Assembly: GCA_963759805.1 (NCBI GenBank)
Contig: CAVXAT010000001.1
Location: 224,001-288,000, forward strand
Direction: 5' to 3'
DNA length: 64,000 nucleotides
Source of the DNA: an uncultured bacterium
GTDB lineage: Bacteria > Babelota > Babeliae > Babelales > RVW-14
Of this stretch, positions 3,116 to 33,522 are shown in pieces (the stretch's first letter is position 1; every line of letters begins with the position of its first letter). The notes under the pieces were generated by a model. It was given only the letters and a program-made list of their open reading frames with translations, had not been told where the DNA came from and did not search any database. Position numbers and translations under genes: made by a program.

Positions 3116-3199
3116 AAAATTAAAGTTTTCAACATCCCAAAACCGTAGTACTATTGTCCTATCCGAGAGTTTAACCCAAAACCAGAAAGAACGCTATCA

Positions 3200-12497: not shown

Positions 12498-15400
12498 ATG
12501 GAATTAGGATTCAAAAGGATATTAGCTGTTGTAGCAGTTATTGGCGTGTTCTTGCTTAATCCAATGTTTGCAACAGTTTCATTTGATAATATCAATTCGC
12601 AATTTATATTAAAAAACAGCAATTCTGAGATTAGATTAAATCCTGCTGCGGTTCTTGGATGGCAAGATAGCTCTATAATTGCCAACGTTGTAAACGCCGG
12701 CTTGGGCGATTATAATCTACTATTGGATGCCAAAAATATAGGCAACTCAACATATCCAAGTTCAGGGAACATCATAAACTATCCCGGAGTGCCGAACACT
12801 TTGATAGGTTCGAATTGGAACATACAGCCAAACATAATTATTCACGTCACTGCAAATGCCGTTCTTGATGGCAATGGAAACACAATAAATCTTGGTGCCA
12901 ATTCTGAAATTTTTGTTGATGACACTGTGACACTTACGTTGCGAAATGTTGTAATTGATAATACCGAAAATTTTGCCGGCAATCCGCCAATAAAACTTGC
13001 AACGAGCAGGAGCAAGGTTGTTTTTGATAATGCAAGATTAAATTTATCAAATGATTTCTACTTTGATCGTGGTCAGATATTTTTTTACAACGATGTTAAC
13101 GTCACGGGTACTAGTGCAATTATTTATCGCTCTGCAAGTCCAAGTTATATAATGTCGGGTGCAAATCTTAAATTTAATTCTGGGACGACATTGGCCTTCG
13201 CGCCGTCTACAACGGGTGCATCGGGAATTTTGGCAAAAGATTTATTTGTAATGGGTGATGCGACATCAAAGTTGACATTGGATGGAGCATCATTTAAAAC
13301 AACACTGACAGGAATGCGTCTGACCAAAGGACAGTTACTGCTTGGTAATAAAATTACAATGACAAGTGTGGCATCATTACGAGCTACGGGTACAAGTTCC
13401 GTATTTACGCTTCCATCTTACAATGGTGCGCCACTAGCAAGAGCATTCAGTGAAATTGACACGTTGCAGTGGAGCCCTGATGGAAGAATGTTAGCCGCAG
13501 CGGGACATACAAGAGAAAAACCACAGGCCCAGAACGTTGCGGTCTATCTCTTTTCCGGATCAACCACAACAACATTGGCCGCGACTGCCTTTTCCGTGAC
13601 GTCATCAGGTGTGTCGTGGAGTCCTGATGGGCAGTATTTGGCGGCGGGTGGAAAGGTATTCGTACCTACTTCGTTGGGACTTAGTGTATCAACATCGAAT
13701 GTACAAGTTTATTCTATTGTGAATAATACCCTTTCGACAGTTGCGCAGACAAATCTTGGAACAACTCTTGCATCATACGCAGGGCCGGTGAGTTGGAGCC
13801 CTGGCGGTCACTACCTGGCTGTTGGTGGGAACATGCGAGGTTTGACGATCTACCAGTTCAATGGAACTACTCTGAATCAGATTTCAACTGCAACTTCAGG
13901 TTCTGCAAATACAAATGAAGTATTAGGAATTGCTTGGCATCCAAGTGGGAAATATGTTGCGGTTGCTACAAATTTTGTACAGGGAGGGTCAGGTGCAGCC
14001 GGTAGCGTAACCATTTATCAAGTTAATAACGGGGTACTTGTTGCATCTGCATTTGCCGCCAGAAGTTATGGAATCGCTGGATCGGGTGGTTATGCAACAA
14101 GTGTTTCATGGAGTCCGGATGGGAATTTCTTGGCAGCGACGGGAGCAACCTCAGTCTCTGCGGGTGTAATAAATGTTTATACATTTACTCCAGCAACATC
14201 TGCCCTTACAGTAGCTGCAACTTCACCATTTGGAACAATCGCAAGGGTTGTAAAATGGAGTCCTGATGGGAGATTCCTACTGGTAGGAGGAAATAACGGT
14301 ACGGCAGATTTGACATTGTATCTGGAATTTACAGGTTCCGGGTTAGGGATCATACAAACGATCTCTTACGGGAAATCAATTTATACTAGCGACCTGAGTC
14401 CAAACGGTTTATACCTTGCACTTGGTGGTGTCAGTCCTACCGCGGTAGGACCGACCGACGGAGAACTTGAGATAGGCATAGTTGCCTATGGTCAAGAGAC
14501 AACTCTTCAAGCTGTATCAAATTCAATTGTATTTGGTAACTCAGGCTCAGGCTCAAGTTATGATTTGAATTTACAATTACTTTCAGGCGCAAACGTTTCA
14601 GTCGACGGAATAGTTAACTATGATAACGTAAATTCAACATCGATATTTAGTAATAACAATGCAAGTTTTGTGTTAAAAAATAGCAATTCTGAGATTAAAC
14701 TCAGGCCTGCAACGGTTCTTGGCTGGCAGGATAGTTCGATAATTGCCAACGTTGTAAACGCCGGCTTGGGCGATTATAATCTGTTGTTGGATGCCAAAAA
14801 TATAGGCAACTCAACATATCTAAGTTCAGGTAACATAATAAACTATCCCGGAGTGCCGAACACTTTGATAGGTTCGAACTGGAACATACAGCAAAACACA
14901 ATTATTCACGTTACTGCAAATGCCGTTCTTGATGGCAATAACAACACAATAAATCTTGGCGCAAACTCGCAAATTTTTGTTGATGACACTGTAACTTTAA
15001 CGTTGCGAAACGTTATGATCAGCAACAACCAAAATTTTGCAAATAATCCGCCAATAAAACTTGCGACAAGCAGAAGTAAACTTGTTCTTGATAATGCAAG
15101 ATTGAACTTTGTAAATGATTTTTACTTCAACCAGGGCGAACTGTTTTGTTACAACGATGTTAACTTCACGGGAACAAGTTCATTTATTTATCGTTCAACT
15201 GTTCCAAGTCAAATCATGTCTGGAGCAAATCTTAAATTTAATCCAAAGACTACATTCTACTTTGAACCTGCTACAAGCGGTGTGACAGGACTTTTGGCAA
15301 AAGACCTTTTAATGATGGGTGATGCGACATCTAAGTTGACATTGGATGGAGCAACGCTTAAAACAACGCTAACTGGCATGCGTCTGACTCAAGGACAGTT

Positions 15401-18400
15401 GCTGCTTAGTAATAATGTGACTATGACAAGTGCAACGTCATTCAGGGCGACGGGCACAAATGCCGTTCTTACACTTGGTACTGGTATCGCAAACGCATTC
15501 AGCGAAATTGACAATTTGCAGTGGAGTCCTGACGGGAGAAAGTTGGCGGTAGCGGGGCAGACGCGAGCAGTAACATACTCAGCGGGCGTATCTGGTAACC
15601 TTGCAGTGTACCTCTTTTCCGGAACGACAACGTCAACTCTGAGCACTGTAGATTTCTCGGTGACGGCATCTGGGGTTTCATGGAGTCCTGACGGACAGTA
15701 TCTGGCGGCGGGTGGCAAGGTGTATCTGCCGGCATCTTTAGGTCTTTCGGTATCAACATCGAACCTGCAAATTTACTCCGCTGCTAATAACTTTTCTTCA
15801 CCGGTAGTGCAGACAAATCTTGGAACAACCAGAGCCTCATACACTGGACCTGTGAGCTGGAGCCCTGATGGGCGCTATCTGGCAGTTGGTGGCAACATGC
15901 GAAACTTGACGATATACCAGTTTAACGGCAGTGCTTTGAGTCAAGTTTCAGCAACCACTGGCGTATCAGAGGTTCTAGGTATTTCTTGGCATCCAAGCGG
16001 AAAATATATAGCGATTGCTACAAACTCCGCAACGGCAAATAGTATAGCCGTTTATTCTGTTGCTAACGGAGTGCTTGGTGGGTCACCATTATCAACAAAA
16101 AACTATACGGCGGGGTATGGAACAAGTGTTGCATGGAGTCCTGATGGAAACTACTTGGCAACAACAGGGCTGGTTTCGAGTGTCGGTACAATGTATGTTT
16201 ATTCAGTTAATTCAGCGGCTACCACATTGACACAAATTTCAGTTTTATCGTTTGGGACAAGTGCAAGAACGGTAAAGTGGAGCTCGGATGGAAGATTTTT
16301 ACTTGTGGGTGGAAATGATACCGCCTCAAGAGATCTGATACTCTATATAGAATTTCCGTCATTGACTTTCATACAAACAATATCTTTTGGTACATACATT
16401 TATAGTACTGATGTTCATCCAAATGGTCTTTATCTGGCAGCCGGTGGTTATACTACTGCCCCTTCGACACCTTATTATACACTTAATATTGCAAGTATTG
16501 CCTATGGTCAAGAGACGACGCCTCAGGCGATCTCCAATTCGATTGTCTTTGGTAACTCGGCTGCCGGATCAGTATCAGATTTAAGCGTTCAGCTACTTTC
16601 CGGTGCAAACGTCTCAGTCGATGGAATATTGAATTATGATAACACCCTTGGCTACACAATGTTTAGCAACGACAATGCAAGGTTTGTTCTGAAAAACAGC
16701 GCTTCCGAAATTCGCATGACTCCAAACACTGTGGTTGGCTGGAAAAACAGCTCATTAATTGATTCGGTTGCTGGCATTGGGCAGGGTGATTATAACCTAC
16801 TAGCCGACGATGCTAATTTTGATAAAATTTTGCCATTTCAAGGCATCCCAAATACATTGACAAGTCTTGGATGGAACGTTCCTGCCAACACCATAATACA
16901 CATCGACAGCAACACTGTGATTAACGGTAATGGCAATACAATTAACCTTGGCAATAATTCAGAGTTATTTGTTGATGACAATGTGACCTTGACTTTAAGA
17001 AACGTGATTATTAGCAACGCCGAAAATTTTGTAGGAAATCCTGCAATCAAACTTGCATCGAACAGAAGCCAGCTTGTGCTTGATAACTCAACATTAAATA
17101 TTGTTGGTGACTTTTATTTTGATCGCGGTCAACTTTTTGCTTACAACGATGTAAATATAAACGGTACGAGTGCATTTATTTATCGTTCTACAAAACCAAG
17201 TTATATAAAATCAGGTGCAAATCTTAAGTTTAATCCTGGTACGACATTTTCATTTGCGCCATCTACCACCGGTATGCTTGGATTGTTGGCAAAAGATCTA
17301 TTGATAATGAGCGATGCAAGTTCGAAAATTACATTGAATGGAGCAACTCTTAAAACAACATATACCGGATTGCGTTTAACTACAGGGCAGTTGTTACTTG
17401 ATAATAAAGTTTCAATGACGAGCGCTGCTGTTTTGGGGATAACAAGTTTTTACTCCAACATTGTATCATCGCCTAGTTATAATGGCTTCATTTGGTCAGT
17501 TGCATGGAGCCCTGATGGTCGTTATGTTGCATGTGGCGGAGGGACTACAGACAAAGTTAATGTGTATCAGTTTACAGGAACAAGTTTAACGCAAGTAGCA
17601 CAATCTGCATCATACGGCAACACCATTTATTCAGTTGCATGGAGTCCTGATGGTCGTTATGTTGCATGTGGTGGAGCGAATACCAACACGGTTAATGTGT
17701 ATCAGTTTACAGGAACGAGTTTAACACAAGTAGCACAATCTGCCTCATATGTTAATACAATTATATCAGTTGCATGGAGTCCTGATGGTCGTTATGTTGC
17801 ATGTGGAGGAGGGACTAACACGGTTAATGTGTATCAGTTTACAGGAACAAATTTAACGCAAGTTGCACAATCTGCTTCATACGGCGGTAGCATTAGTTCA
17901 GTTGCATGGAGTCCTGATGGTCGTTATGTTGCATGTGGAGGAGGGACTAACACGGTTAATGTGTATCAGTTTACAGGAACAAATTTAACGCAAGTAGCAC
18001 AATCTGCTTCATACGGCGGTATAATTCAGTCAGTTGCATGGAGTCTTGATGGTCGTTATGTTGCATGTGGTGGAGGGACTACCAACAAGATTAACGTGTA
18101 TCAGTTTACAGGAACGAGTTTAACGCAAGTTGCACAATCTGCTTCATACGGCGGTGGCATTATTTCAGTTGCATGGAGTCTTGATGGTCGTTATGTTGCA
18201 TGTGGTGGAGGGACTACCAACAAGATTAACGTGTATCAGTTTACAGGAACGAGTTTAACGCAAGTTGCACAATCTGTTACATACAACGGGCAAATTGAAT
18301 CACTTGCATGGAGTCTTGATGGTCGTTATGTTGCATGTGGTGGACAGAATACCAACACAGTTAATGTGTATCAGCCGCATTATCAAGCAATAGCCACTCC

Positions 18401-21400
18401 CCAAGCAATTTCAAATTCAATCGTGTTTGGTAACTCAGGCTCAGGATCAAGTTATGACTTGAATGTTCAACTACTTTCAGGGGCAAACGTCTCAATCGAC
18501 GGGATTCTAAATTATGACAACACCCAGGGCTACACAATGTTCAGTAATAACAATGCAAGCTTTGTATTAAAAAACAGCAATTCTGAAATTCATATGACCC
18601 CAAACACTGTTGTCGGATGGCAAGACAGCTCTATAATTTCTAACGTCTCAAACGCCGGCTTAGGTGATTACAATTTAATCTCCGATGTGAGTCCAAAAAA
18701 TGCCCAAATTCCAACTAATCTAATAAATTACTCCGGTGTGCCAAATACTTTGGTAGGTTCGAACTGGAACATCCCTGCAAACACAATCGTTCACGTCAGT
18801 AACAATGCAGTGCTTGATGGTAACGGTAACACAATAAGTATTGGTGCCAATTCTGAAATCTTTGTAGATGACACAATAACGTTGACATTGCGTAACGTTG
18901 TAATCAGTAATAATCAGAATTTTGCAAATAATCCGCCGATAGAGCTTGCGACAAGCAGAAGCAAACTTGTTCTTGATAATGCAAGACTGAACTTTGTAAA
19001 TGATTTTTACTTCAACCAGGGCGAACTGTTTTGTTACAACGATGTTAACTTTACGGGAACAAGTTCATTTATTTATCGTTCAACTGTTCCAAGTCAAATC
19101 ATGTCAGGAGCAAATCTTAAATTTAATCCAAAAACTACCTTTTACTTTGAACCTTCCACGAGCGGTACGACCGGACTTTTGGCAAAAGATCTTTTAATGA
19201 TGGGTGATGCGACAAGCAAGATTACACTGGACGGAGCATCGTTGAAAACAACGCTGACCGGCATGCGTCTGACTCAAGGACAGTTGCTGCTTGGTAACAA
19301 TGTTACGATGACAAGTGCAACATCATTCAGGGCCACGGGCACAAATGCCATTCTTACCCTTGGTACCGGTATCGCCAATGCATTCAGAGAAATTGATAAG
19401 TTACAGTGGAGTCCTGACGGAAGAAAACTGGCGGTGGCCGGTCAGACGAGGGAAAAATTACTAGTACAACCAAGTAGCTTATCCGTGTATCTCTTCTCCG
19501 GAACAACGACGTCAACGCTAGCAACTGTCAGCTTTTCAGTGACGGCATCAAGTGTTTCATGGAGTCCTGATGGGCAGTATCTGGCGGCGGGTGGAAAAGT
19601 AAGCATACCGTTATCTTTAACGGTATCAACATCGAACCTACAAATTTACTCTGCTGCTAATAACTTTTCTTCACCGGTAGTGCAGACAAATCTTGGAACG
19701 ACTCGAGCCTCATACACAGGTCCGGTAAACTGGAGTCCTGATGGGCGCTATCTGGCAGTTGGTGGTAATGGGCATGGATTGACGATTTACCAGTTCAATG
19801 GAACTACCCTGAATCAAGTTTCGGCTACGTCTTCAACAGGCCCAGAAGTTTTAGGAATCTCTTGGCATCCAAGTGGAAAATATATTGCTGTTGCAACAAA
19901 TTTCACGGCAGGTGCAGCTGGTGGCATAACGATTTATCCTATTAATAATGGGGTATTGACCACATCTGGTTTACCTTCATCATTTACAAGAACTTATGGA
20001 TCCGCTGGATCCGGTTGTGGAACAAGTGTTTCATGGAGTCCTGATGGAAACTACTTGGCAACAACCGGTCAGGTTACAGGCTTGGCTGGTGGTCCTGGCG
20101 CGATGTATGTTTATGCATTTAATTTGACAGCCCAGTGGACGATGCAAGTCTCAGCGTTACCGTTTGGAACAAGTGCAAGAACGATAAAATGGAGCTCGGA
20201 TGGAAGATTTTTACTTGTGGGTGGTAACGATACTGCATCAAGAGATCTGGTACTCTACATAGAATTTCCGTCATTAACTTTAATAAATATAGTATCTTTT
20301 GGTACGTATATTTATAGCACTGATGTACATCCAAATGGTCTTTATCTGGCAGTCGGTGGTTATACGACCAACCCTTCGAAACCTTATTACACACTTAATA
20401 TTGCAAGTATTGCCTATGGCCAAGAGACGACGCCTCAGGCGATCTCTAACTCAATTGTCTTTGGTAACTCGGCGGCAGGATCAGCATCAGATTTAAGCGT
20501 TCAACTACTTTCCGGTGCAAACGTCTCAGTCGACGGAATAATTAATTATGACAACACCATGGGTTACACAATGTTCAGTAATAACAATGCAAGCTTTGTA
20601 TTAAAAAACAGCAACTCTGAAATTCGCATGCATCCTAATACCGTTATTGGATGGAATGATAGATCCCTTATCAAGAATACAGTTGGAGGTGGGCTTGGTG
20701 ATTATAATCTGGTCTCGTATGCGCCTACTCTGAATAATAATATTGTGAATTATGCAGCAGCTCCTGCCGAACTTGTTTATGATAATAGTAATGCAGTAGT
20801 GGGACTGACGGTAACTGCAAGAACAAATAGTAATGCATTAGTTTATCTGAGAAGAACTACCAGCAATTCAGAAGCATATCTAAGCAGAATGAGCAGCAAC
20901 TCTATTGCATATCTGAGTAGGACGAGTAGTAATTCAATAGCTTATCTGAGTAGAATGACAAGTAATTCGATAGCATGGCTAAGTGGCGTGGAGCGAGGGA
21001 ACAGTAACTTGCTCAGAGTAACGAGTAATGGATTAGTTTATTTGCGAAGGACGACCAGTAATTCAGAAGCATATTTAAGCAGAATGAGCAGTAACTCTAT
21101 TGCATATTTGAGTAGAACGACAAGTAATTCAATAGCTTATCTGAGTAGAATGACAAGTAACTCAATAGCATGGCTCAGCGGTGTGGAGCGAGGGAACAGT
21201 AACTTTCTCAGAATAACAAGTAATGCATTAGTTTATCTAAACAGAACAACAAGTAATTCGATGGCATATTTAAGCAGAATGAGCAGCAACTCGATAGCAT
21301 ATTTAAGTAGGACGAGTAGTAATTCAATAGCTTATCTGAGTAGAATGACAAGTAACTCGATAGCATGGCTAAGTGGCGTGGAGCGAGGGAACAGTAACTT

Positions 21401-24152
21401 TCTCAGAGTAACAAGTAATGCATTAGTTTATCTGAGAAGAACTACCAGTAATTCAGAAGCATATTTAAGCAGAATGAGTAGCAACTCGATAGCATATCTG
21501 AGTAGGACGAGTAGTAATTCAATAGCTTATCTGAGTAGAATGACAAGTAACTCAATAGCATGGCTCAGTGGTGTGGAGCGAGGGAATAGCAACTTGCTCA
21601 GAGTAACGAGTAATGGATTAGTTTATTTGCGAAGGACGACCAGTAATTCAGAAGCATATTTAAGCAGAATGAGCAGTAACTCTATTGCATATTTGAGTAG
21701 GACGAGTAGTAATTCAATAGCTTATCTGAGTAGAATGACAAGTAACTCAATAGCATGGCTCAGCGGTGTGGAGCGAGGAAACAGTAACTTGCTCAGAGTA
21801 ACAAGCAATGCATTAGTTTATCTAAACAGAACAACAAGCAATTCCATGGCATATCTAAGCAGAATGAGCAGCAACTCTATTGCATATTTAAGTAGGACGA
21901 GTAGTAATTCAATAGCTTATTTGAGTAGAATGACAAGTAACTCAATAGCATGGCTGAGTGGAGTCGAACGAGGTAACAGTAACTTGCTCAGAGTAACAAG
22001 CAATGCATTAGTTTATTTACGAAGAACGACAAGTAATTCAGAAGCATATTTAAGCAGAATGAGCAGCAACTCGATAGCATATTTAAGTAGGACGAGTAGT
22101 AATTCAATAGCTTATCTGAGTAGAATGACAAGTAACTCGGTAGCATGGCTCAGCACAAGAGTCAGAACAGATAGTAACGCTTTCTTATATGGCATCAAGA
22201 ATAGCAGTAACTGGATTAACCAATGGGCAACTACTGTTAAGCAGACAAGTAACACTGCAAACTATTTGAGTATGAGAGTTAGAACCGACAGTAATGCGTT
22301 GCTGGCTTTGAATCGTACAACATCGAATGCACTTCTGTTTAGCAATCGAAACAACAGCAACGCAATAATCAAGCTTTGCGTAATCGAGAGAACAAGCTCA
22401 AATGCATTTGCTTACGGAATTAAAAACAACAGTAACTGGATTAACCAGTGGGCAACTACCGTTAAACAGACAAGTAACTCCATGAAATATTGGGCGCCTG
22501 TTGTTAAAGCTAACAGTAACTGGATTAACCAATGGGCAACTACTGTTAAGCAGACAAGTAACACTGCAAACTATTTGAGTATGAGAGTTAGAACCGACAG
22601 TAATGCGTTGCTGGCTTTGAATCGTACAACATCGAATGCACTTCTGTTTAGCAATCGAAACAACTCGAATGCAATCATTAAACTTGGTGTGACTGAGAGA
22701 ACGAACTCCAACGCGTTTGCTTACGGAATCAAGAACAACAGTAACGCTATTATAAAACTGGGTCAGGCAGGAGGCGTTCTGTCTGTTAATAATAGTAATG
22801 CTATCATCAAGCTCGATAGTACCTCCAGAACTAACAGTAATGCATTTGCGTATGAAATTAAGAACAACAGTAACGCTATTATAAAACTGGGTCAGGCAGG
22901 AGGCGCTCTGTCTGTTAATAATAGTAATGCTATCGTCAAGCTCGATAGTACCTCCAGAACTAACAGTAATGCATTTGCGTACGAAATTAAGAACAACAGT
23001 AACGCAATCATAAAACTCAACCAAGGTGGTTCAGTTGCACTGGCAGTCCAAAACAGCAATGCAATCGTATCTTGGATTAAAGGCACAAGTAATGCCGTCA
23101 TTAAGTTAAGCGGTACGGCTCCTGCAGTTCTACCAATTAATAACAGTAATGCAATTATAAAACTTAACGCATCAATGCAAACCATAGATCACGGCCCAAG
23201 CGCCATTCAAATTAGCACCCCTACATACACTATGGCATATGACATTTATCTAAGCGCAGATCATACATTAAATATCGCAAACAGTTGTGTGTTTGATGGC
23301 AACGGACACATGATAAATTTTGCAAAAGATAGTCCAAATATTTTCACAACAGGGTTAGGTAGCACAGTAGTTCTTAACAATGTTGTTCTAAAGAACTTTG
23401 ATGACTCATCAGTGCAACTGGGAGTCGGTGCTACATTAACATTTGGTGACGGTTGCAGAATTGATCTTGCAGATGAACAGGCAATGTCAATGCCATGGAT
23501 ATTCAGTGGGAATTCTGCAATCAATGGTTATGGCAACCCTCTTGATCTTGGTACGCAAAGCATCCAAATTATGCAAAGTGGAGCTTTGACAGTAGAAAAC
23601 ATTATCCTGAGTGGTCTTGTAGGTAACAATGTACGATGCTTAGGTCCAAACGCAAATATTACATTCAAAAATGACACATTACAAACTACAGGCGATTACA
23701 GCTTTACGGCTGGGGCTCTGATATTCCAAGATGAAGTTGAAATCAAGTCTAATAATGAGCTTTCACTTTCAAATGCATTTATTTACGCGTCTGATCAAAC
23801 ATCAACAATAAACAGTTACTCAAGATTGAAATTGGATTATGGCGTGCTTTTCTATTATGGACCAAGTGTTGTGCGTAGAGATTTAATTGCGATGCAAGAT
23901 GTTTCTTCAGAGTTATATTTGAATGGATGCGCATTAGCAACATCATCAGTCGGAATGCGTTTAACAAAAGGAACATTGACCGTTGACAGCGACAACATTT
24001 TAATCGACGTTTTATTTGGAACACCAACAAGTCTTGCTCAAAGTATCTGTTTTGGTGATGGAGTTGCAGCTGATGACTTGGCAATAAACATACTCCCAGG
24101 CGGGCAATTGAATGTAACCAACGGAATACTTGATTATCAGAACGTGAATTAA
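12498..24152 (+). CDS. Giant (3884 aa) secreted adhesin-like protein: four scaffold+WD40 modules, a repeat stalk and a terminal scaffold module
   Basis: Signal peptide; repeated FV/ILKNSxSEI module starts (~12594, 14655, 16671, 18549, 20582); four propellers; SNSIAYLSR repeats; ends YQNVN. Confidence 0.88.
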   Translation: MELGFKRILAVVAVIGVFLLNPMFATVSFDNINSQFILKNSNSEIRLNPAAVLGWQDSSIIANVVNAGLGDYNLLLDAKNIGNSTYPSSGNIINYPGVPNTLIGSNWNIQPNIIIHVTANAVLDGNGNTINLGANSEIFVDDTVTLTLRNVVIDNTENFAGNPPIKLATSRSKVVFDNARLNLSNDFYFDRGQIFFYNDVNVTGTSAIIYRSASPSYIMSGANLKFNSGTTLAFAPSTTGASGILAKDLFVMGDATSKLTLDGASFKTTLTGMRLTKGQLLLGNKITMTSVASLRATGTSSVFTLPSYNGAPLARAFSEIDTLQWSPDGRMLAAAGHTREKPQAQNVAVYLFSGSTTTTLAATAFSVTSSGVSWSPDGQYLAAGGKVFVPTSLGLSVSTSNVQVYSIVNNTLSTVAQTNLGTTLASYAGPVSWSPGGHYLAVGGNMRGLTIYQFNGTTLNQISTATSGSANTNEVLGIAWHPSGKYVAVATNFVQGGSGAAGSVTIYQVNNGVLVASAFAARSYGIAGSGGYATSVSWSPDGNFLAATGATSVSAGVINVYTFTPATSALTVAATSPFGTIARVVKWSPDGRFLLVGGNNGTADLTLYLEFTGSGLGIIQTISYGKSIYTSDLSPNGLYLALGGVSPTAVGPTDGELEIGIVAYGQETTLQAVSNSIVFGNSGSGSSYDLNLQLLSGANVSVDGIVNYDNVNSTSIFSNNNASFVLKNSNSEIKLRPATVLGWQDSSIIANVVNAGLGDYNLLLDAKNIGNSTYLSSGNIINYPGVPNTLIGSNWNIQQNTIIHVTANAVLDGNNNTINLGANSQIFVDDTVTLTLRNVMISNNQNFANNPPIKLATSRSKLVLDNARLNFVNDFYFNQGELFCYNDVNFTGTSSFIYRSTVPSQIMSGANLKFNPKTTFYFEPATSGVTGLLAKDLLMMGDATSKLTLDGATLKTTLTGMRLTQGQLLLSNNVTMTSATSFRATGTNAVLTLGTGIANAFSEIDNLQWSPDGRKLAVAGQTRAVTYSAGVSGNLAVYLFSGTTTSTLSTVDFSVTASGVSWSPDGQYLAAGGKVYLPASLGLSVSTSNLQIYSAANNFSSPVVQTNLGTTRASYTGPVSWSPDGRYLAVGGNMRNLTIYQFNGSALSQVSATTGVSEVLGISWHPSGKYIAIATNSATANSIAVYSVANGVLGGSPLSTKNYTAGYGTSVAWSPDGNYLATTGLVSSVGTMYVYSVNSAATTLTQISVLSFGTSARTVKWSSDGRFLLVGGNDTASRDLILYIEFPSLTFIQTISFGTYIYSTDVHPNGLYLAAGGYTTAPSTPYYTLNIASIAYGQETTPQAISNSIVFGNSAAGSVSDLSVQLLSGANVSVDGILNYDNTLGYTMFSNDNARFVLKNSASEIRMTPNTVVGWKNSSLIDSVAGIGQGDYNLLADDANFDKILPFQGIPNTLTSLGWNVPANTIIHIDSNTVINGNGNTINLGNNSELFVDDNVTLTLRNVIISNAENFVGNPAIKLASNRSQLVLDNSTLNIVGDFYFDRGQLFAYNDVNINGTSAFIYRSTKPSYIKSGANLKFNPGTTFSFAPSTTGMLGLLAKDLLIMSDASSKITLNGATLKTTYTGLRLTTGQLLLDNKVSMTSAAVLGITSFYSNIVSSPSYNGFIWSVAWSPDGRYVACGGGTTDKVNVYQFTGTSLTQVAQSASYGNTIYSVAWSPDGRYVACGGANTNTVNVYQFTGTSLTQVAQSASYVNTIISVAWSPDGRYVACGGGTNTVNVYQFTGTNLTQVAQSASYGGSISSVAWSPDGRYVACGGGTNTVNVYQFTGTNLTQVAQSASYGGIIQSVAWSLDGRYVACGGGTTNKINVYQFTGTSLTQVAQSASYGGGIISVAWSLDGRYVACGGGTTNKINVYQFTGTSLTQVAQSVTYNGQIESLAWSLDGRYVACGGQNTNTVNVYQPHYQAIATPQAISNSIVFGNSGSGSSYDLNVQLLSGANVSIDGILNYDNTQGYTMFSNNNASFVLKNSNSEIHMTPNTVVGWQDSSIISNVSNAGLGDYNLISDVSPKNAQIPTNLINYSGVPNTLVGSNWNIPANTIVHVSNNAVLDGNGNTISIGANSEIFVDDTITLTLRNVVISNNQNFANNPPIELATSRSKLVLDNARLNFVNDFYFNQGELFCYNDVNFTGTSSFIYRSTVPSQIMSGANLKFNPKTTFYFEPSTSGTTGLLAKDLLMMGDATSKITLDGASLKTTLTGMRLTQGQLLLGNNVTMTSATSFRATGTNAILTLGTGIANAFREIDKLQWSPDGRKLAVAGQTREKLLVQPSSLSVYLFSGTTTSTLATVSFSVTASSVSWSPDGQYLAAGGKVSIPLSLTVSTSNLQIYSAANNFSSPVVQTNLGTTRASYTGPVNWSPDGRYLAVGGNGHGLTIYQFNGTTLNQVSATSSTGPEVLGISWHPSGKYIAVATNFTAGAAGGITIYPINNGVLTTSGLPSSFTRTYGSAGSGCGTSVSWSPDGNYLATTGQVTGLAGGPGAMYVYAFNLTAQWTMQVSALPFGTSARTIKWSSDGRFLLVGGNDTASRDLVLYIEFPSLTLINIVSFGTYIYSTDVHPNGLYLAVGGYTTNPSKPYYTLNIASIAYGQETTPQAISNSIVFGNSAAGSASDLSVQLLSGANVSVDGIINYDNTMGYTMFSNNNASFVLKNSNSEIRMHPNTVIGWNDRSLIKNTVGGGLGDYNLVSYAPTLNNNIVNYAAAPAELVYDNSNAVVGLTVTARTNSNALVYLRRTTSNSEAYLSRMSSNSIAYLSRTSSNSIAYLSRMTSNSIAWLSGVERGNSNLLRVTSNGLVYLRRTTSNSEAYLSRMSSNSIAYLSRTTSNSIAYLSRMTSNSIAWLSGVERGNSNFLRITSNALVYLNRTTSNSMAYLSRMSSNSIAYLSRTSSNSIAYLSRMTSNSIAWLSGVERGNSNFLRVTSNALVYLRRTTSNSEAYLSRMSSNSIAYLSRTSSNSIAYLSRMTSNSIAWLSGVERGNSNLLRVTSNGLVYLRRTTSNSEAYLSRMSSNSIAYLSRTSSNSIAYLSRMTSNSIAWLSGVERGNSNLLRVTSNALVYLNRTTSNSMAYLSRMSSNSIAYLSRTSSNSIAYLSRMTSNSIAWLSGVERGNSNLLRVTSNALVYLRRTTSNSEAYLSRMSSNSIAYLSRTSSNSIAYLSRMTSNSVAWLSTRVRTDSNAFLYGIKNSSNWINQWATTVKQTSNTANYLSMRVRTDSNALLALNRTTSNALLFSNRNNSNAIIKLCVIERTSSNAFAYGIKNNSNWINQWATTVKQTSNSMKYWAPVVKANSNWINQWATTVKQTSNTANYLSMRVRTDSNALLALNRTTSNALLFSNRNNSNAIIKLGVTERTNSNAFAYGIKNNSNAIIKLGQAGGVLSVNNSNAIIKLDSTSRTNSNAFAYEIKNNSNAIIKLGQAGGALSVNNSNAIVKLDSTSRTNSNAFAYEIKNNSNAIIKLNQGGSVALAVQNSNAIVSWIKGTSNAVIKLSGTAPAVLPINNSNAIIKLNASMQTIDHGPSAIQISTPTYTMAYDIYLSADHTLNIANSCVFDGNGHMINFAKDSPNIFTTGLGSTVVLNNVVLKNFDDSSVQLGVGATLTFGDGCRIDLADEQAMSMPWIFSGNSAINGYGNPLDLGTQSIQIMQSGALTVENIILSGLVGNNVRCLGPNANITFKNDTLQTTGDYSFTAGALIFQDEVEIKSNNELSLSNAFIYASDQTSTINSYSRLKLDYGVLFYYGPSVVRRDLIAMQDVSSELYLNGCALATSSVGMRLTKGTLTVDSDNILIDVLFGTPTSLAQSICFGDGVAADDLAINILPGGQLNVTNGILDYQNVN
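17478..18375 (+). repeat. Seven near-identical 132-135 bp tandem WD40 blade repeats
   Basis: SVAWS(P/L)DGRYVACGG...VYQFTGT recurs with a 44-45 aa period (e.g. TCAGTTGCATGG at 17496 and 17631). Confidence 0.95.
20826..22190 (+). repeat. 195-bp (65-aa) tandem super-repeat, about 7 copies, built from 33-bp (11-aa) units
   Basis: Unit SNxLVYLxRT-TSNSxAYLSRM-SSNSIAYLSRT-SSNSIAYLSRM-TSNSIAWLSGVERG-NSNxLRV. Related SNAIIKL repeats continue to ~23170. Confidence 0.95.
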
Positions 24153-25576: not shown

Positions 25577-28378
25577 TTAACTCAACTTAACCAAGTTAAC
25601 AATTTCCTGTTCAAGGGTTGGCAGCTTACCTTGTCCGCCGCCTTGAATAAACTCTTCGTTTCCGCCGCTGCGAATATTAAATTTATTTTTCAATAACTCA
25701 GATAACGCTTTCAAGCTTATTTTATTTTCAGATTTTTTTGATTGATACGCAATGACTGAAAAATTGTCTGAATTACTGGTTTTATTCAAGATAACGTATA
25801 ATCCGGGTTTGTGTTTTTCAAAATCAGTACAGATTGATTTCATCTCTTGGTTAGGCAAGTCTTCAATTTCAAGATAAACAAATGGAACTTTGCCGATAAC
25901 TGTAATTTTATTTTGCCATTCAATAATCTGAGATTTCATTAACTGCTTGCGAAGCTGTTTGATCTGGCTTTGAGATTCAAGATAACGTTCTTGCAGTTTA
26001 TTGACAGCATCATAAACCTCTTCGAATTTTGTTTTAAAATCTTCGCTGAGTTTTTTAACAGTTGTGAAGGACTGCTGAAAAAGTTTGACAGCCTCATGTC
26101 CTGTTACACCGGTAATTCTTCGCACACCGGTTGAAAGGGCGGTTTCGCTTACAATCTTAAAACAACCTATGATTCCGGTGCTTGGGGCATGTACGCCTCC
26201 ACAGAGTTCCGTGGAAAATCCGGGAACCTGGACGACACGAACTTTTTCAGGGTTGTATTTTTCACCGAAGAAAGCCATTGCTCCGGCAGTCTTTGCCTCT
26301 TCCAGTGTTGAGTAGAAAATCTTTGTCTGAATATCTTCTTGAATTTTTTGGTTTACAAGATCTTCAACGGCTTGGATCTGCTCGTGCGTTAATGCTTGCT
26401 GATGTGAAAAATCGAATCTGAATGATTCTGCGCAGACGGATGAACCCGCTTGCTTTATGCCGCTGCCTAAAATTTGGATCAGGGCAGCCTGAAGCAGGTG
26501 TGTGGCGGTGTGATTTTTTACTGTGTTGATTCTTGAGAAGTAATCGACAATGCAGTGTGCGCTGTCGCCGACTTTGATGTCGGAAATTATCTGTGACTCG
26601 CATCCTTCGACAGGCTCCCAGGCTTCGCCCTTAGTGGCTACGCCGGGCACGGCAGGACGATCCTTCGACAGGCTCAGGATGAGCGGCCTGCTTGCCTGGG
26701 CGCCGTAGCTATCCAAGCGAAGGCGGCTCGAACCATCACGCAGTGACGCGCCTGGTTCAGTAGTTAGTGAAACTTTTACGGCAATTGCAGGGTGATTTAC
26801 ATTTCCAAGTTTTTGCAAAGCGAGTACGGGCAGGGCGTGTTCTTTTATTGTCACCCAGCCATTATCTCCAATTTGACCTCCGGACTCAACATAAAATGGG
26901 GATTTATCAGTAATAATCCACGCTGTCTGATCACTGTTTTTCTGTACGAATATTATTTTTGCTTTTGCTTCAAGATCTGTGTACCCAACGAATTCAGTCG
27001 ATGTTCCAGCAGGGATAGCTCCCTCATTAAGCTTTTCATTTTCACCATCATGCTTTTTACCGGATTGCTCACGTTGTTTGTCCATCTCTTTTTCAAAAGC
27101 CTCCATATCCAACGTGAGGTTCTGTTCATGTGCCAAGACTTTTGTTAATTCCGGTGGGAACCCGTAGGTGTCATAAAGTTTAAAAATTTGTTGTCCTGAA
27201 AGAAATAGCTGTCCGTCTTTTTTATTATCTTCAACGTATTTTGTAAAAATATTTTGACCTTGTACTAAGTTGATTGCAAATTTTTCAACTTCGCTATCAA
27301 GTGTTGTAGCGATGAGTTTAGTACCGGCTCCCAACTCGGGATAGACGGGGGACATCTGTTTTATAAATCTTTTTGAGAGTTTAGATAAAAGCTGTTTGTC
27401 GTCAGAAAGTTTTTGTGCAAACATAGCAGCACGACGAATAATTTTGCGTAGAACATAACCGCGACCTTCATTTGATGGCGTGCAGCCGTCTGCAATTAAA
27501 AAGGATGAAGAGCGGACATGGTCGCATAAAACATTGAATGCTGCTTTAATTTTTTCAGGGCTTTGGTTGTAACTGAAATTTGTTATTTTTTCTATCTCAT
27601 CGATGATATCGGCAAAAAGGTCTGTTTCAAATACTGACTCTTTACCCTGAACGACGCAGCATAGACGCTCAAGTCCCATTCCGGTGTCCACACCTGTTTT
27701 GGTCAGCGGCTTTAATTCACCATTTGATTGACGGTCATACTGCATGAACACAAGGTTCCAGATCTCCATAAATCTGTCGCAATCACATCCCGGGGCACAA
27801 TCTTTACTGCCGCAACCGCGTTCTATCCCTTTGTCGATGTATATTTCGGTGCATGGTCCGCATGGACCGGTGTCTCCCATCTGCCAGAAATTATCCTTTT
27901 CGCCAAGTCGTCGGATGCGTGTTGCAGGAAGCCCGACAACTTTATTCCAAATTTCAAAAGCTTGGTCGTCTGTTGTAAAGACGGTGGCATAAAGCTTATC
28001 TTTGGGTAATCCTATCTCTTTTGTTAAGAGTTCCCAGGCAAAGCCGATTGCCTCCTTTTTGAAGTAGTCGCCGAATGAAAAATTTCCGAGCATCTCAAAA
28101 AATGTTAGGTGTCTGGCCGTAAATCCTACATTTTCTAAATCGTTGTGTTTTCCGCCTGCTCGTACACACTTTTGAGAAGATGTAGCTCGGGTATAAGATC
28201 TTTTTTCTTTACCCAAAAAAATATCTTTAAATTGGTTCATGCCTGCGTTGGCAAAAAGAAGTGTTGGATCCTGTGCCGGAATAAGTGATGAACTGGCTAC
28301 AACGGTGTGACCATTTTTTGCAAAAAAATCCAAGTACTTTTTGCGTAATTCGAATGATTTCATTAGACTTCCTATCAA
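25577..28378 (-). CDS. alaS: Alanine--tRNA ligase with an in-frame ~55-aa palindromic-element insertion
   Basis: DPTLLFANAGMNQFK, HLTFFEMLGNFSFGDYFK, NHTATHLL, ELCGGVH editing motifs. Confidence 0.97.
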   Translation of the reverse strand: MIGSLMKSFELRKKYLDFFAKNGHTVVASSSLIPAQDPTLLFANAGMNQFKDIFLGKEKRSYTRATSSQKCVRAGGKHNDLENVGFTARHLTFFEMLGNFSFGDYFKKEAIGFAWELLTKEIGLPKDKLYATVFTTDDQAFEIWNKVVGLPATRIRRLGEKDNFWQMGDTGPCGPCTEIYIDKGIERGCGSKDCAPGCDCDRFMEIWNLVFMQYDRQSNGELKPLTKTGVDTGMGLERLCCVVQGKESVFETDLFADIIDEIEKITNFSYNQSPEKIKAAFNVLCDHVRSSSFLIADGCTPSNEGRGYVLRKIIRRAAMFAQKLSDDKQLLSKLSKRFIKQMSPVYPELGAGTKLIATTLDSEVEKFAINLVQGQNIFTKYVEDNKKDGQLFLSGQQIFKLYDTYGFPPELTKVLAHEQNLTLDMEAFEKEMDKQREQSGKKHDGENEKLNEGAIPAGTSTEFVGYTDLEAKAKIIFVQKNSDQTAWIITDKSPFYVESGGQIGDNGWVTIKEHALPVLALQKLGNVNHPAIAVKVSLTTEPGASLRDGSSRLRLDSYGAQASRPLILSLSKDRPAVPGVATKGEAWEPVEGCESQIISDIKVGDSAHCIVDYFSRINTVKNHTATHLLQAALIQILGSGIKQAGSSVCAESFRFDFSHQQALTHEQIQAVEDLVNQKIQEDIQTKIFYSTLEEAKTAGAMAFFGEKYNPEKVRVVQVPGFSTELCGGVHAPSTGIIGCFKIVSETALSTGVRRITGVTGHEAVKLFQQSFTTVKKLSEDFKTKFEEVYDAVNKLQERYLESQSQIKQLRKQLMKSQIIEWQNKITVIGKVPFVYLEIEDLPNQEMKSICTDFEKHKPGLYVILNKTSNSDNFSVIAYQSKKSENKISLKALSELLKNKFNIRSGGNEEFIQGGGQGKLPTLEQEIVNLVKLS
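26596..26760. repeat. Composite nested palindromic element inside alaS
   Basis: GC-rich ~165 bp, nearly identical to 31743-31908; contains CCTTCGACAGGCTC twice plus two type-B hairpins. Confidence 0.92.
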
Positions 28379-28975: not shown

Positions 28976-29049
28976 GGGCCTGTAGCTCAGGTGGCTAGAG
29001 CATCCCGCTGATAACGGGAAGGTCAGTCGTTCAAGTCGACTCAGGCCCA
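28976..29049 (+). tRNA. tRNA-Ile(GAT)
   Basis: Cloverleaf: GGGCCTG/CAGGCCC acceptor, TCCCG-CTGATAA-CGGGA anticodon arm, GTTCAAGT T-loop; CCA not encoded. Confidence 0.95.
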
Positions 29050-29071
29050 CTCTTCTAAAATTGAAATTCTT

Positions 29072-29144
29072 GGGGGTATAGCTCAGTTGGTAGAGCATCC
29101 GCTTTGCAAGCGGAGGGTCTGCGGTTCGAATCCGCATACCTCCA
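29072..29144 (+). tRNA. tRNA-Ala(TGC)
   Basis: GGGGGTA/TACCTCC acceptor with G3:U70, TCCGC-TTTGCAA-GCGGA anticodon arm. Confidence 0.95.
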
Positions 29145-29222
29145 CTCCTCTTCGCCCTTGAAGGGCTACGATGAGCACGGCCAGTCTTCGCTGCTTCGCA
29201 GCTTCCGCCGTCGCATAAAGCT
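29145..29222 (+). repeat. Left part of a nested REP-like cluster interrupted by IS110
   Basis: Type-B hairpins; the last one (TCCGCCGTCGCATAAAGCT) is completed by ATGGCGGACAAG at 30431. Confidence 0.85.
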
Positions 29223-29289
29223 TGTATGTTAGAAATCTATTAAATAAATAAGAATTTTATTAACTTTATTCCAGAGTTATTTTTTTTAA

Positions 29290-29446
29290 TATCGATTGTT
29301 CAAGGAAGTTGATAGATCTCGTGCTCGAGCTGATCATAAGGGATCGTGCCATAGTTTGAGACTATCAACTTACATTAAACAACCTCGAACAATCACTTGA
29401 GACGTATTGGGTACGATCTCGCATGTTTACAAGCCAGAGGTAATCG
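29290..29446 (+). ncRNA. IS110 bridge RNA (target-binding and donor-binding loops); ends approximate
   Basis: A 10-bp stem 29306-29315/29362-29371 encloses GCTCGAGCT and GCCATAG. Stem ACCTC/GAGGT encloses ACAATCACT and TACAAG, which match the element's own ends. Confidence 0.85.
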
Positions 29447-29448
29447 TT

Positions 29449-30384
29449 ATGGTATCAAATATATATGTAGGCGTCGATATTTCTAAAAACAGCTTAGATA
29501 TTTGCATTTATCCTGAAAAAACACTCTTAAAAATAGACAACACAGAAGCTGCGATACAGGGTTTCATTAAAAAAATAGCCCAGCAAGATATTGCACAAAT
29601 AGCATGTGAAGCAACAGGAGGATATGAAAAGCTGCTTGCAACGCTGCTAAAAAAGAATGGCTACAACCTTTGGATTATTGATCCGAGGCGAATAAGGGGT
29701 TTTATTGTTTCAACTGGATGCAAAAGCAAAAACGATAAAATTGATGCACGAAAAATTGCTGAATTTTGTTCTAAAAATACGCGTGGCTATTCGACGGTTG
29801 AAAAAACTGAGAATCAAGCCAAATTGCAAGCTCTCGTTAATCGTAAAAACGATCTTACCAAGTTTTTGGCTGCGGAAAAAACAAGATTAAAGCAACCTTC
29901 ACATGCAATGAGTTTACCGAGCATTAAACGTTTGATTAAAATTTTTACCGCAGAAATCAAGACGGTAGATACGCAAATATCTGGCTTACTCAAAAACGAT
30001 AGCGAACTTGGTCAAAAAGCTGAGATTTTAGAATCTATACCTGGAATTGGAATTGCCTCTGCAGCTCTTCTTTTATCACATGTTCCAGAGCTTGGAACAA
30101 TAAGTAACAATAAAATATCGGCTCTTGTTGGTGTGTGTCCATATGACAATGAAAGCGGTAAATTCAAGGGTAAGAGAAGAATTCGGGGAGGACGGATGAC
30201 CCCGAGAAATCAGATTTACATGTGCGCATTAACAACCATTAAACATAACCTAATTCTTAAAGCCTTTTATGATCGCTTGATAAAAAATCAAAAACCGTTC
30301 AAAGTGGCCATAGTTGCCGTTATGCGCAAACTAATTATTCTTGCCAATTCGCTGTTAAAAAGAGGCGAGTTATGTAAAGTTTAA
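29449..30384 (+). CDS. IS110-family DEDD recombinase/transposase (311 aa)
   Basis: GVDISK, CEATG, KNDKIDA (DEDD), SIPGIG, NESGK (Tnp serine), AIVAVMRKL. ATG at 29449 follows GAGG. Confidence 0.95.
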   Translation: MVSNIYVGVDISKNSLDICIYPEKTLLKIDNTEAAIQGFIKKIAQQDIAQIACEATGGYEKLLATLLKKNGYNLWIIDPRRIRGFIVSTGCKSKNDKIDARKIAEFCSKNTRGYSTVEKTENQAKLQALVNRKNDLTKFLAAEKTRLKQPSHAMSLPSIKRLIKIFTAEIKTVDTQISGLLKNDSELGQKAEILESIPGIGIASAALLLSHVPELGTISNNKISALVGVCPYDNESGKFKGKRRIRGGRMTPRNQIYMCALTTIKHNLILKAFYDRLIKNQKPFKVAIVAVMRKLIILANSLLKRGELCKV

Positions 30385-30430
30385 TTTTCGAAAATTTTTA
30401 AAAAAAGTTTTGACTTTTAACACAATCACT

Positions 30431-30513
30431 ATGGCGGACAAGTCGCCGGCACAGCAGGATGAGCGCTCATGGTGAGCCTGTCGAACCATGGCGAACAAGT
30501 CGTCTGGCAAGCC
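30431..30513 (+). repeat. Right part of the nested REP-like cluster
   Basis: ATGGCGGACAAGT-CGCCGGCACAGC-AGGATGAGCG-CTCATGGTGAGCCTGTCGAACCATGG..., made of type-A and type-B pieces. Confidence 0.8.
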
Positions 30514-31273: not shown

Positions 31274-31308
31274 TATGTTACTGAAATTGATATTCTAAAA
31301 AAATTAGT

Positions 31309-31381
31309 GGGGATGTAGCTCAGTTGGTAGAGCATCTGCCTCGCACGTAGAAGGTCAGCGGTTCGAATCCGCTCATCTCCA
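31309..31381 (+). tRNA. tRNA-Ala(CGC)
   Basis: GGGGATG/CATCTCC acceptor with G3:U70; TCTGC-CTCGCAC-GTAGA anticodon arm. Confidence 0.93.
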
Positions 31382-31474
31382 CCCTTCGCTTTCGCCCTAA
31401 AGGGCTCCTAGCTTCCAGCCTTCGTTAAAACTACGGCGGGCACGGCAAGACGGGTCGCAAGCCAGTCTTCGCTC
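31382..31474 (+). repeat. REP-like type-B cluster directly after tRNA-Ala(CGC)
   Basis: TTCGCCCTAAAGGGCT, CCAGCCTTCGTTAAAACTACGGCGGGCACGGC, CCAGTCTTCGCT. Confidence 0.8.
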
Positions 31475-31487
31475 AATTCGTGCCACT

Positions 31488-31740
31488 CTAATTTTTTGGG
31501 GCTACTTTTTTCTGCAACTCTTCCCATTCTTCGTACAGTTTTTCGATTTGGGATTTCACTTCATTGATTCGTTGGGATGTTCTGTCAAAATCCGGTGTTC
31601 CAAAATCCAGAAATTCAAAGCTTTGATTAAGGGTTACGAGTTGTTTTTCAAGCGTCTCAATTTTGCGTTCAAGACTAGCTATCTGTTTTTTAGATTCGTA
31701 CCATTCTTTGCTGCTAATTGTTGGATTAGTATCTCTTCTG
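31488..31740 (-). pseudogene. Out-of-frame C-terminal coiled-coil domain of the ABC-F gene
   Basis: An open frame absent from the ORF track reads ...KKQIASLERKIETLEKQL...KSQIEKLYEEWEELQKKVAPKN*, typical of the ABC-F/Uup CTD. Confidence 0.75.
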
Positions 31741-33522
31741 AAACTCGCATCCTTCGACAGGCTCCCAGGCTTCGCCCTTCGTGGCTACGCCGGGCACCGC
31801 AGGACGATCCTTCGACAGGCTCAGGATGAGCGGCTTGTTTGCCTGGGCGCCGAAGCCTTGGCGAAGGCGGCTCGAACCATCACCCCTTGGTGACGCGCCG
31901 GGTTTCAGAAGCAGTTCGGTGTGTTTTTTGTGATACAGGAAAGATTCGTAATTTCCCGGGTAGTTAATGACTCCTTGTGGCATTAGTTCTAAAACTCTGC
32001 TGGCAAGGCCGTCTACAAACGTTCTATCATGTGAAACAAATAAAATAGTTCCGGGATACTGATTTAATGCTTTTAATAAAATCTCTTTTGTCTGAAGGTC
32101 AAGGTGGTTAGTCGGTTCATCAAGAACCAGAAAGTTGGCATCCAGAAGTAGCGTTTTTACCATTGCTACTCGGTTTTTTTCTCCGCCGCTGAGCACCGAT
32201 ATCCTCTTTTCAACATCATCGCCTGAGAACAGAAATGCACCAAGCAAACCGCGTACGTGTGATCGCATTTCCGACGTTGTGCATATGCTCTCCACCTCTT
32301 CCAAAATTGTTCTATTTTTATCAAGCGTTAACTCTTGATCCTGTTCAAAAAAAGCCATCTCAACGTTGTGTCCAAACTTTAGCGTACCACCCTCCAGGGG
32401 ATATTTCCCTGCAATTAAATTCAACAGGGTGGTTTTGCCCTTTCCATTTGCAGCTACCAGCGCTACTTTATCACCGCGCATAATATCAAACGAAACGTTT
32501 GCGAATAACTCAGTAGAATCAAACGTTTTTTTTAGATTGCTAACTTTGAGTACGATATCACCCGAGCGTTTAATATTTGAAAAATTAAGTTTAATCGTAG
32601 GAGGTTTGGGTTCAACTTGAATAAGCTCAATTTTTTCAAGAGCTTTGAGCATGCTTTGTGCCATGCTTGCCTTTGTGGCCTTGGCTTTAAAACGATTAAT
32701 CGTCTCCATCGTCTTTTTAATATGTCTTTGTTGAGCTTCATACTGAGCCTGCAAAACTGCATCATCATTAGCCTTTTGCTCCAGATATTTTGTATAATTA
32801 CCACGATAAATTTTTAAATTTCCTCGATCGATATCAAAAATATACTGGCAGAGGTGATCCAGAAAATAGCGATCGTGACTTATAAGAATAAAACCAAAAT
32901 TGGCGTATTTTAAAAAATCCAAAAACCAGTCTTTTGCAACGATATCAAGGTGGTTTGTAGGCTCGTCAAGAAGATAGAAATCTGCTTTTTGTAGAAGTAA
33001 TTTTGCAAGTACAATTCGCATTTTCCAACCAACGCTGAGCTCGCTGACCGGCTTGCCAATTTTTTCTGATGGAAATCCAAGCATAGACAGCATCTTTTTT
33101 GTTTCAACTACGCACTGGTCAAAGTCGTGCTCAGATAACTCTTTTTGTAAAAAAGCAAAGCGTTCAAGTTTCTCAGGGGTGTGTGCCGATTCATGCTCAA
33201 ACTCAGAGTTGAGTAAATCAAATTCAAGCTTCAAATCTACTAAATTACCAAATGTTGTTAGTGTTTCTTCAATAACAGATCTATTGGAGACTAGGACGAC
33301 TTCTTGCGGGAAATAGGCAATTTTAACTCGTTTCTCAATCAGAATGGTTCCGCTGTCAATTCCTTGCTGTCTGCTCAAAACTTTGAGTAGTGTTGATTTT
33401 CCACTTCCATTTCTACCGACAAGCCCGATTCTTTGGTTTTTTTCAATAGAGAAAGAGAGATCTTTAAATAACTCACGTTGTCCAAATTCAAGGCAGATAT
33501 TAGAGGCTGTTATCATCTTCAA
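31726..33522 (-). CDS. ABC-F family ATPase (Uup/YheS/YdiF-like), ending just after a palindromic insertion
   Basis: Two ABC domains (GRNGSGKS, LSVGW, LLDEPTNHLD; AANGKGKT, LSGGE, LDEPTNHLD), YRGNY linker. Confidence 0.92.
   Translation of the reverse strand: MKMITASNICLEFGQRELFKDLSFSIEKNQRIGLVGRNGSGKSTLLKVLSRQQGIDSGTILIEKRVKIAYFPQEVVLVSNRSVIEETLTTFGNLVDLKLEFDLLNSEFEHESAHTPEKLERFAFLQKELSEHDFDQCVVETKKMLSMLGFPSEKIGKPVSELSVGWKMRIVLAKLLLQKADFYLLDEPTNHLDIVAKDWFLDFLKYANFGFILISHDRYFLDHLCQYIFDIDRGNLKIYRGNYTKYLEQKANDDAVLQAQYEAQQRHIKKTMETINRFKAKATKASMAQSMLKALEKIELIQVEPKPPTIKLNFSNIKRSGDIVLKVSNLKKTFDSTELFANVSFDIMRGDKVALVAANGKGKTTLLNLIAGKYPLEGGTLKFGHNVEMAFFEQDQELTLDKNRTILEEVESICTTSEMRSHVRGLLGAFLFSGDDVEKRISVLSGGEKNRVAMVKTLLLDANFLVLDEPTNHLDLQTKEILLKALNQYPGTILFVSHDRTFVDGLASRVLELMPQGVINYPGNYESFLYHKKHTELLLKPGASPRGDGSSRLRQGFGAQANKPLILSLSKDRPAVPGVATKGEAWEPVEGCEFQKRY
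31743..31908. repeat. Composite nested palindromic element, second copy
   Basis: Near-identical to 26596-26760; bracketed by the inverted repeat CTTCTGAAAC (31735-31744)/GTTTCAGAAG (31902-31911). Confidence 0.92.

Follow-up and report, generated by a model that had tools for sequence, protein, structure and literature searches.

The window analysed here (the whole stretch of 64,000 nucleotides, from an uncultured bacterium of the Babeliales) carries, downstream of tRNA-Ile and tRNA-Ala, a mobile element for which a preliminary description proposed a readable bridge RNA directed against a REP-like hairpin of the host. This locus raises the question of whether such an element, one of whose guides matches its site only in part, is indeed an IS621-type bridge recombinase element, and of how its target would be found. 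Our analysis indicates that the element is real, was correctly read and belongs to the known IS621 bridge-RNA kind. We conclude, with a probability of about 0.92, that it is a bridge recombinase element of the IS110 group (IS621 type) whose host belongs to the Babeliales (Dependentiae), and that it has transposed recently.

The element occupies positions 29221-30430 of the window (1210 bp, both CT cores included), with a left end of 226 nt, which contains the RNA, and a right end of 44 nt (Table 1). The span first given, 29221-30437, was right for the left end but not for the right end, as its last 7 bp are target and the element stops at 30430. In the host genome (1.50 Mb, 21 contigs), a search revealed three near-identical copies with identical ends and differing left flanks (CATAAAG in the window, CTCATGG on contig C1, GCTAAAG on contig C2), the sequence being otherwise equal save for one 1-bp deletion. 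Copy 2, on the minus strand of C1 at about 2776-3995 (near 2.8-4.0 kb), is frameshifted by one missing base (window equivalent 30185), which truncates its recombinase to 249 aa; this copy could still be movable in trans. Copy 3 is located on C2 near 1-1.2 kb and has lost its right flank at the contig end. The right target is thus readable in two of the three copies, and in both of them the right flank is ATGGCGG.

The proposed empty target could be reconstructed by paralogy, as empty versions of all three sites are present within the genome: C11:19530 and C4:113361 for the CATAAAG type of the window, C13:6492, C16:5493 and C16:8731 for the CTCATGG type of C1, and C1:22843, C8:3654 and C4:5495 for the GCTAAAG type of C2. 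The CT core occurs once in these empty sites, and the ends are set by CT in 3/3 copies. Also, a metagenomic relative, L002 (80% aa identity), starts and stops at the same junctions. Since the three copies and L002 share their ends, the boundaries do not depend on the window site alone. The recombinase found no match in three genomes of the same genus, two of which (G002 and G003) carry other sequence after tRNA-Ala, so that no orthologous empty site was found. The tRNA-Ile(GAT) and tRNA-Ala(TGC) pair itself (28976-29145) has protein-coding frames on both sides; tRNA-Ile/tRNA-Ala pairs are usually found in rRNA spacers. A further tRNA-Ala(CGC) lies at 31308-31384, and a 3884-aa ORF at 12498-24152 (plus strand) contains WD40-like repeats as well as a long tandem array of S/N-rich repeats.

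Table 1. Positions of the element's features and of its target in the window.
Feature	Position	Strand	Basis
5' arm GCCGTCGC of the interrupted host REP-like hairpin	29207-29214	+	pairs with G-core-right target in the folded empty site
Left target, positions 1-7, mostly hairpin loop	29214-29220	+	copy comparison
Left CT core	29221-29222	+	common to 3/3 copies
Right donor TGTAT (29223-29227), overlapping the -10-like hexamer TATGTT (29225-29230)	29223-29230	+	joined-end reading
Predicted bridge RNA; putative start placed from the -10 box	29237-29445	+	folding, alignment of left ends
Target-binding loop: outer stem 29306-15/29362-71, helix 29317-20/29358-61, inner hairpin 29332-35/29342-45	29306-29371	+	folding, covariation
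Left target guide GCTCGAGCT, 9 nt ending in CT	29323-29331	+	RNA-rule parsing
Right target guide GCCATAG, 7/7 complementary to core and right target	29348-29354	+	script check
Target-loop handshake bases UU; U29355 complementary to donor position 7 (A)	29355-29356	+	covariation
Donor-binding loop: stem 29382-86/29437-41, inner hairpin 29399-29406/29412-29420	29382-29441	+	covariation, folding
Left donor guide ACAATCACT, 9/9 to left donor and core	29389-29397	+	script check, shuffles
Right donor guide TACAAG, 6 contiguous pairs with core and right donor	29428-29433	+	script check
Donor-loop handshake bases CC; C29434 complementary to target position 7	29434-29435	+	target 7 = G in 3/3 copies
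IS110 recombinase, 311 aa; D10, E54, D96, D99, S236	29449-30384	+	domain, PDB and alignment matches
-35-like hexamer TTGACT; once the ends are joined, 17 bp separate it from the -10-like hexamer	30410-30415	+	joined-end reading
Left donor ACAATCA	30422-30428	+	copy comparison
Right CT core	30429-30430	+	sequence reading, copy comparison
Right target ATGGC (30431-30435), part of the host hairpin's 3' arm	30431-30437	+	copy comparison

The recombinase is of the DEDD/serine type, with domains PF01548 and PF02371 in a profile search and a score of 194.5 bits against NF033542 (cutoff 140). Its PDB matches were solely ISCro4 and IS621 (phmmer, E about 1e-34), and its residues D10, E54, D96, D99 and S236 align with D11, E60, D102, D105 and S241 of IS621, the published catalytic residues (PMC11208158). 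These five residues are invariant in 65/65 aligned sequences, namely the query and 64 picked among the 120 homologues listed. Among these homologues, the closest named relatives belong to Candidatus Babeliales/Dependentiae genomes. By contrast with the earlier view of the protein as a compact ortholog, its 311 aa are no special trait: the usual length in the clade is about 313 aa, and the published IS110 range is 300-460 aa (PMC11208160). Catalysis by this protein would follow the IS621 model.

The left end was predicted to fold into a target-binding and a donor-binding internal loop, each with an inner hairpin, as in IS621-type RNAs, whose layout has been described (PMC11208160). The inner hairpin of the target loop can be read directly as GATC/GATC, and the guide segments and stems were all recovered by script at the positions first reported, including ACCTC at 29382 and GAGGT at 29437. 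Region 29270-29450 folds with z = -3.72 (0/200 shuffles equally good); the target loop by itself gave z = -3.94 and the donor loop by itself z = -1.37 (19/200). The AT-rich 5' part of the RNA, which is poorly conserved, showed no significant hairpin (z = +0.59). When the two-loop structure was placed on 12 aligned left ends, 95.9% of the cells were paired and both sides had changed in 10 of the 31 pairs, compared with 3.3 in shuffles (0/500) and 2-3 when the structure was slid, with a bias in favour of the structure, which was written from the window, one of the 12 sequences. The proposal of two IS621-type guide loops is thus upheld by folding, with covarying stems. At gathering score, Rfam returned tRNAs only and nothing in the left end; the Rfam copy used returned no match to a bridge RNA family.

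Together, the guide words are more than chance would yield in such a left end. Among 5000 dinucleotide shuffles of the 226 nt, the 9-nt donor word occurred in 6, the 6-nt right-donor word in 350 and the 7-nt right-target word in 12, while all three together occurred in none. Most relatives have a one-base linker between the left target guide and the inner hairpin, which is missing here. The first 8 nt of the left guide are palindromic, which we take as chance since L001 and L002 have no such palindrome. A shifted guide register with GC as the core-pairing bases was also considered, and by eye it fits none of the three sites. The handshake base had been missed in the preliminary description.

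Related elements were then used to follow guides and targets together. A single protein query found 0 loci on genome contigs, and an alignment query found 55, duplicate loci being counted once. We inspected 35 loci, of which 27, with the two other copies of the host, make 29 copies of 17 elements that are 39-100% identical in protein. The eight loci left out are partial (L028, L007, L080), without recognisable ends (L074, L077) or have an apparent non-CT core (L078, L085, L090). These last three are copies of a distant relative (38% aa) that seems to have another core at its junctions. The set analysed does not include 33 loci on viral contigs, which are 23-35% identical, or the best plasmid relatives, which are about 38% identical. 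The right-end motif had 0 matches on viral contigs. Guides were placed by an RNA rule blind to the target (CT adjoining the inner hairpin and AG following it), and core positions were unscored; the end and guide patterns were written after the sequences had been seen, and a second rule was needed to parse L001 and L025.

In this set, the left guide matched its own left target at 5.09 of 7 positions against 2.29 when shuffled (15 elements, 0/100,000), the right guide matched its own right target at 3.73 of 5 against 1.77 (16 elements, 0/100,000), and the donor-loop handshake base was complementary to target position 7 in 28/28 copies with a known flank (16 elements, 1/100,000), as C:G, G:C and U:A pairs; the related elements are not independent, so these shuffle counts overstate significance and are not true probabilities. 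The target-loop handshake base was complementary to donor position 7 in 15/16 elements, and the left donor guide matched its own donor at 7/7 positions in 15/16 elements, across five donor variants. The match fraction of the left guide is 0.36 at position 1 and climbs to 1.0 at position 7 (15 elements). The right guide fits poorly (2/5) in three related elements (L026, L076, L079). In L026, the right target guide is that of the window element, and the right flank does not match this guide; the flank duplicates a segment located about 80 bp upstream of the left end, possibly through a rearrangement adjoining the element. The left junction of L021 shows an 18-bp tandem duplication of the core and the start of the left end.

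The three left flanks of the host copies all belong to one GC-rich hairpin repeat whose 5' and 3' arms are fixed and whose loop varies. The two-arm pattern identified 60 empty repeat copies in the genome, 29 of them with an ATGGC arm, and 0 in each of five shuffled genomes. The repeat is not purely extragenic, as 6 of the 29 ATGGC-type and 9 of the 19 ACGGC-type copies are well inside frames of at least 200 codons. The genome contains 68 empty G-CT-ATGGC sites. Because only 29 of these are in the repeat family, the three insertions into repeats are by themselves no proof that the hairpin is recognized. Folding of 47-nt reconstructed targets was no better than shuffles for most elements, with z = -1.2 and +0.2 for the two complete sites of this host.

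The same repeat family is found in genes. The alanyl-tRNA synthetase gene alaS (25577-28378) contains an in-frame mosaic of it at 26585-26764 (minus strand), which adds about 51 aa and is absent in G002 and G003, where the flanking segments abut. This insert resembles Rickettsia palindromic elements. A second copy of the insert (89% identical, about 31737-31904, minus strand) constitutes the last 55 or so codons of an ABC-F ORF (31726-33522). In the genome, 14 of the 24 places matching the alaS insert are at least 120 bp inside frames of at least 200 codons.

The IS621-type bridge RNA, the CT core, the REP-like target and the long right target guide, which is complementary at 7/7 positions, were all borne out; the left target guide fits less well. 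At the window site, this guide makes 3 Watson-Crick pairs and one rG:dT wobble over the 7 non-core positions, exactly as first counted; it makes 1/7 at copy 2 and 5/7 at copy 3, each with one wobble. Such poor fit is below the clade mean and is not unique (3 in E021, 2 in E024, 1 in one E013 copy). In register, the occupied sites fit the left guide no better than empty repeats do (p = 0.23). The left guide had been described as tolerant. This is supported by the three left flanks used with one identical guide and by relatives that keep the right guide while the left one differs, but the trait is not novel. The ISPpu10 element of Pseudomonas putida, which inserts at a REP hairpin, already combines a tolerant left guide with a strict right guide (10.64898/2026.03.19.712850), and Durrant et al. 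had already noted that right guides can be long in nature (PMC11208160). The data are compatible with three readings of the left guide: ordinary tolerance of distal mismatches, bulged pairing, and one-arm pairing, in which a hairpin gate may or may not take part.

The left guide may be nearly dispensable beyond position 7, in which case the core and the right guide would pair as one arm (a half-match), perhaps with help from the hairpin as in ISPpu10; we would place this reading just under even odds. It would account for the single left-guide match at copy 2, and one-arm recombination has been shown for IS621 (10.64898/2026.08.31.748434). Moreover, L001 and L002 share the right guide of the window element and have different left guides, and contigs of runs X2, X3 and X4 carry substitutions and indels within 29322-29333 and none at 29348-29354 among the rows listed. 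One of the five E013 copies (L014) lies outside the repeat, with 1/7 left matches and 4/5 right matches plus a wobble, and is a candidate for a natural half-match. However, the strong covariation of left guide and left target over 15 elements implies that the left guide is under selection in the clade, and the window guide does fit one common loop variant of the genome (5/7 and a wobble). The form of this reading in which the hairpin assists is further weakened by the folding of the targets and by the share of empty G-CT-ATGGC sites that belong to the repeat family, both given above.

Alternatively, the left guide would pair with longer loop variants by looping out one DNA base, which we consider unlikely. 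If one DNA bulge is allowed, the three occupied sites all reach 5/7 and a wobble (5.5), the top class, a score also reached by 10 of the 29 empty ATGGC-type sites (mean 4.0), and two other clearly linker-less elements gain as well (E011 by 1, E021 by 2). Nevertheless, this comparison is post hoc, on three sites, with p = 0.058, and any poor match rises by about 1.2 on average (from 2.8 to 4.0). Linker-bearing elements also gain in three cases (L014, L017, L005), whereas there is no gain for E022 and E024 remains at 2.5. A literature search on bulging in IS110 bridge RNAs found no precedent. Another reading, in which the guide-like matches are accidental or relics and the repeat is found by the protein alone, as the poor left-guide fit of the window element might suggest, is highly improbable. 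It is largely refuted by the covariation of guides, donors and handshake bases, seen among elements with protein identities as low as 39%, besides the absence of the three guide words together from the shuffles.

For the bridge recombinase element proper, the ends, the copies and the target family, as well as the covariation within the RNA, of guides with targets and of handshake bases, are all read from sequence. Transcription, the circle, catalysis and the manner in which left-guide mismatches are tolerated are what we infer from them and from IS621. By analogy with IS621, the element would exit as a circle joined at the CT core. Contigs of relatives from four sequencing runs contained no piece spanning the element, and no end-to-end joint was listed among them, a result that speaks neither for nor against a circle. 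The joined ends read TTGACT-N17-TATGTT, a sigma-70-like arrangement by consensus match only, to which a promoter scan of the linear element is blind; the joined ends of relatives are similarly arranged, with a degenerate -35 in L021. The circle junction, as a putative promoter on the IS621 model, would drive transcription of the left end into the bridge RNA, whose donor loop would pair with the element's own junction (9 + 6 nt) and whose target loop would pair with the GC-rich hairpin repeat of the host. Specificity would lie chiefly in G-CT-ATGGC (position 7 together with the core and the 7-nt right guide); the distal left guide would pair best with the GCTAAAG loop variant, mismatches being tolerated at the others. 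The handshake pairs U29355-donor A7 and C29434-target G7 would form only after strand exchange and would favour insertion. With the published numbering, the Watson-Crick handshake pairs rise from one to two on strand exchange in copies 1 and 3, and from none to three in copy 2. In IS621, these pairs number one before and three after (PMC13626964), and the change is thus in the same direction.

This element shares with IS621 of E. coli and ISCro4/IS622 (PMC11208160, PMC11208158, 10.1101/2025.05.14.653916; PDB 8WT6, 9T56) the DEDD and serine recombinase, a long left and a short right end, the CT core, a putative promoter at the joined ends, two guide loops with inner hairpins, handshake bases that follow the position 7 rule (PMC11208158), a REP-type target and a wobble in the left target guide. 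Its protein is distant, as the E value above indicates, and measures 311 aa against 328 residues in the IS621 PDB chain. Its right target guide has a natural length of 7 nt, compared with 4 nt in IS621, its left-guide fit is much poorer, the linker base after the left guide is absent, and the 5' stem-loop of the consensus bridge RNA finds no support in the folding. Donor, target and host phylum also differ. With ISPpu10, it has in common a hairpin REP target, the CT core, and a left guide tolerant at its distal part with a strict right guide. The stem is arranged differently: in ISPpu10, the 5' extension pairs with the left target, whereas in the present element the partners of the 5' arm are position 7, the core and the right target, and the left target stays in the loop. 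IS1111 elements belong to the same recombinase family but have their RNA in a long right end and 7-17 bp sub-terminal inverted repeats (PMC11208160). Here, the RNA is in the 226-nt left end, opposite a right end of 44 nt, and the junction is flanked by short imperfect inverted repeats only, which sets the element outside IS1111.

We found no literature on IS110 elements in Dependentiae or on palindromic repeats of Babeliales. In the readable supplements of PMC11208160, the terms Dependentiae, Babeliales and TM6 gave 0 matches, and three of the four matches of the donor word were examined and proved unrelated; the element or its clade may be present in ISfinder or in preprint supplements. Orthologue mining of bridge recombinases has become routine (10.1101/2025.05.14.653916), and the known mechanism is unchanged by this element. 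A more particular scenario, which we regard as doubtful, is that a Babeliales lineage tracks a repeat of variable loop length by keeping its 7-nt right guide fixed, while the linker-less left guide bulges out one DNA base or yields to the target hairpin. If true, a left guide assisted in this way by a bulge or a hairpin would amount to natural reading of targets with tolerance of indels, of which our searches revealed no description in IS110 elements.

Our data add a clade of bridge recombinases of about 313 aa from Dependentiae, in which the donor is almost invariant and the target loops are naturally varied. The 17 tabulated elements constitute matched sets of guides, targets and handshake bases, useful for the screening of orthologs, and mismatch rules could be tested on them as on a natural data set. 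The window element itself is a good test case for poor left-guide matches, which are a source of off-target insertion in bridge editing.
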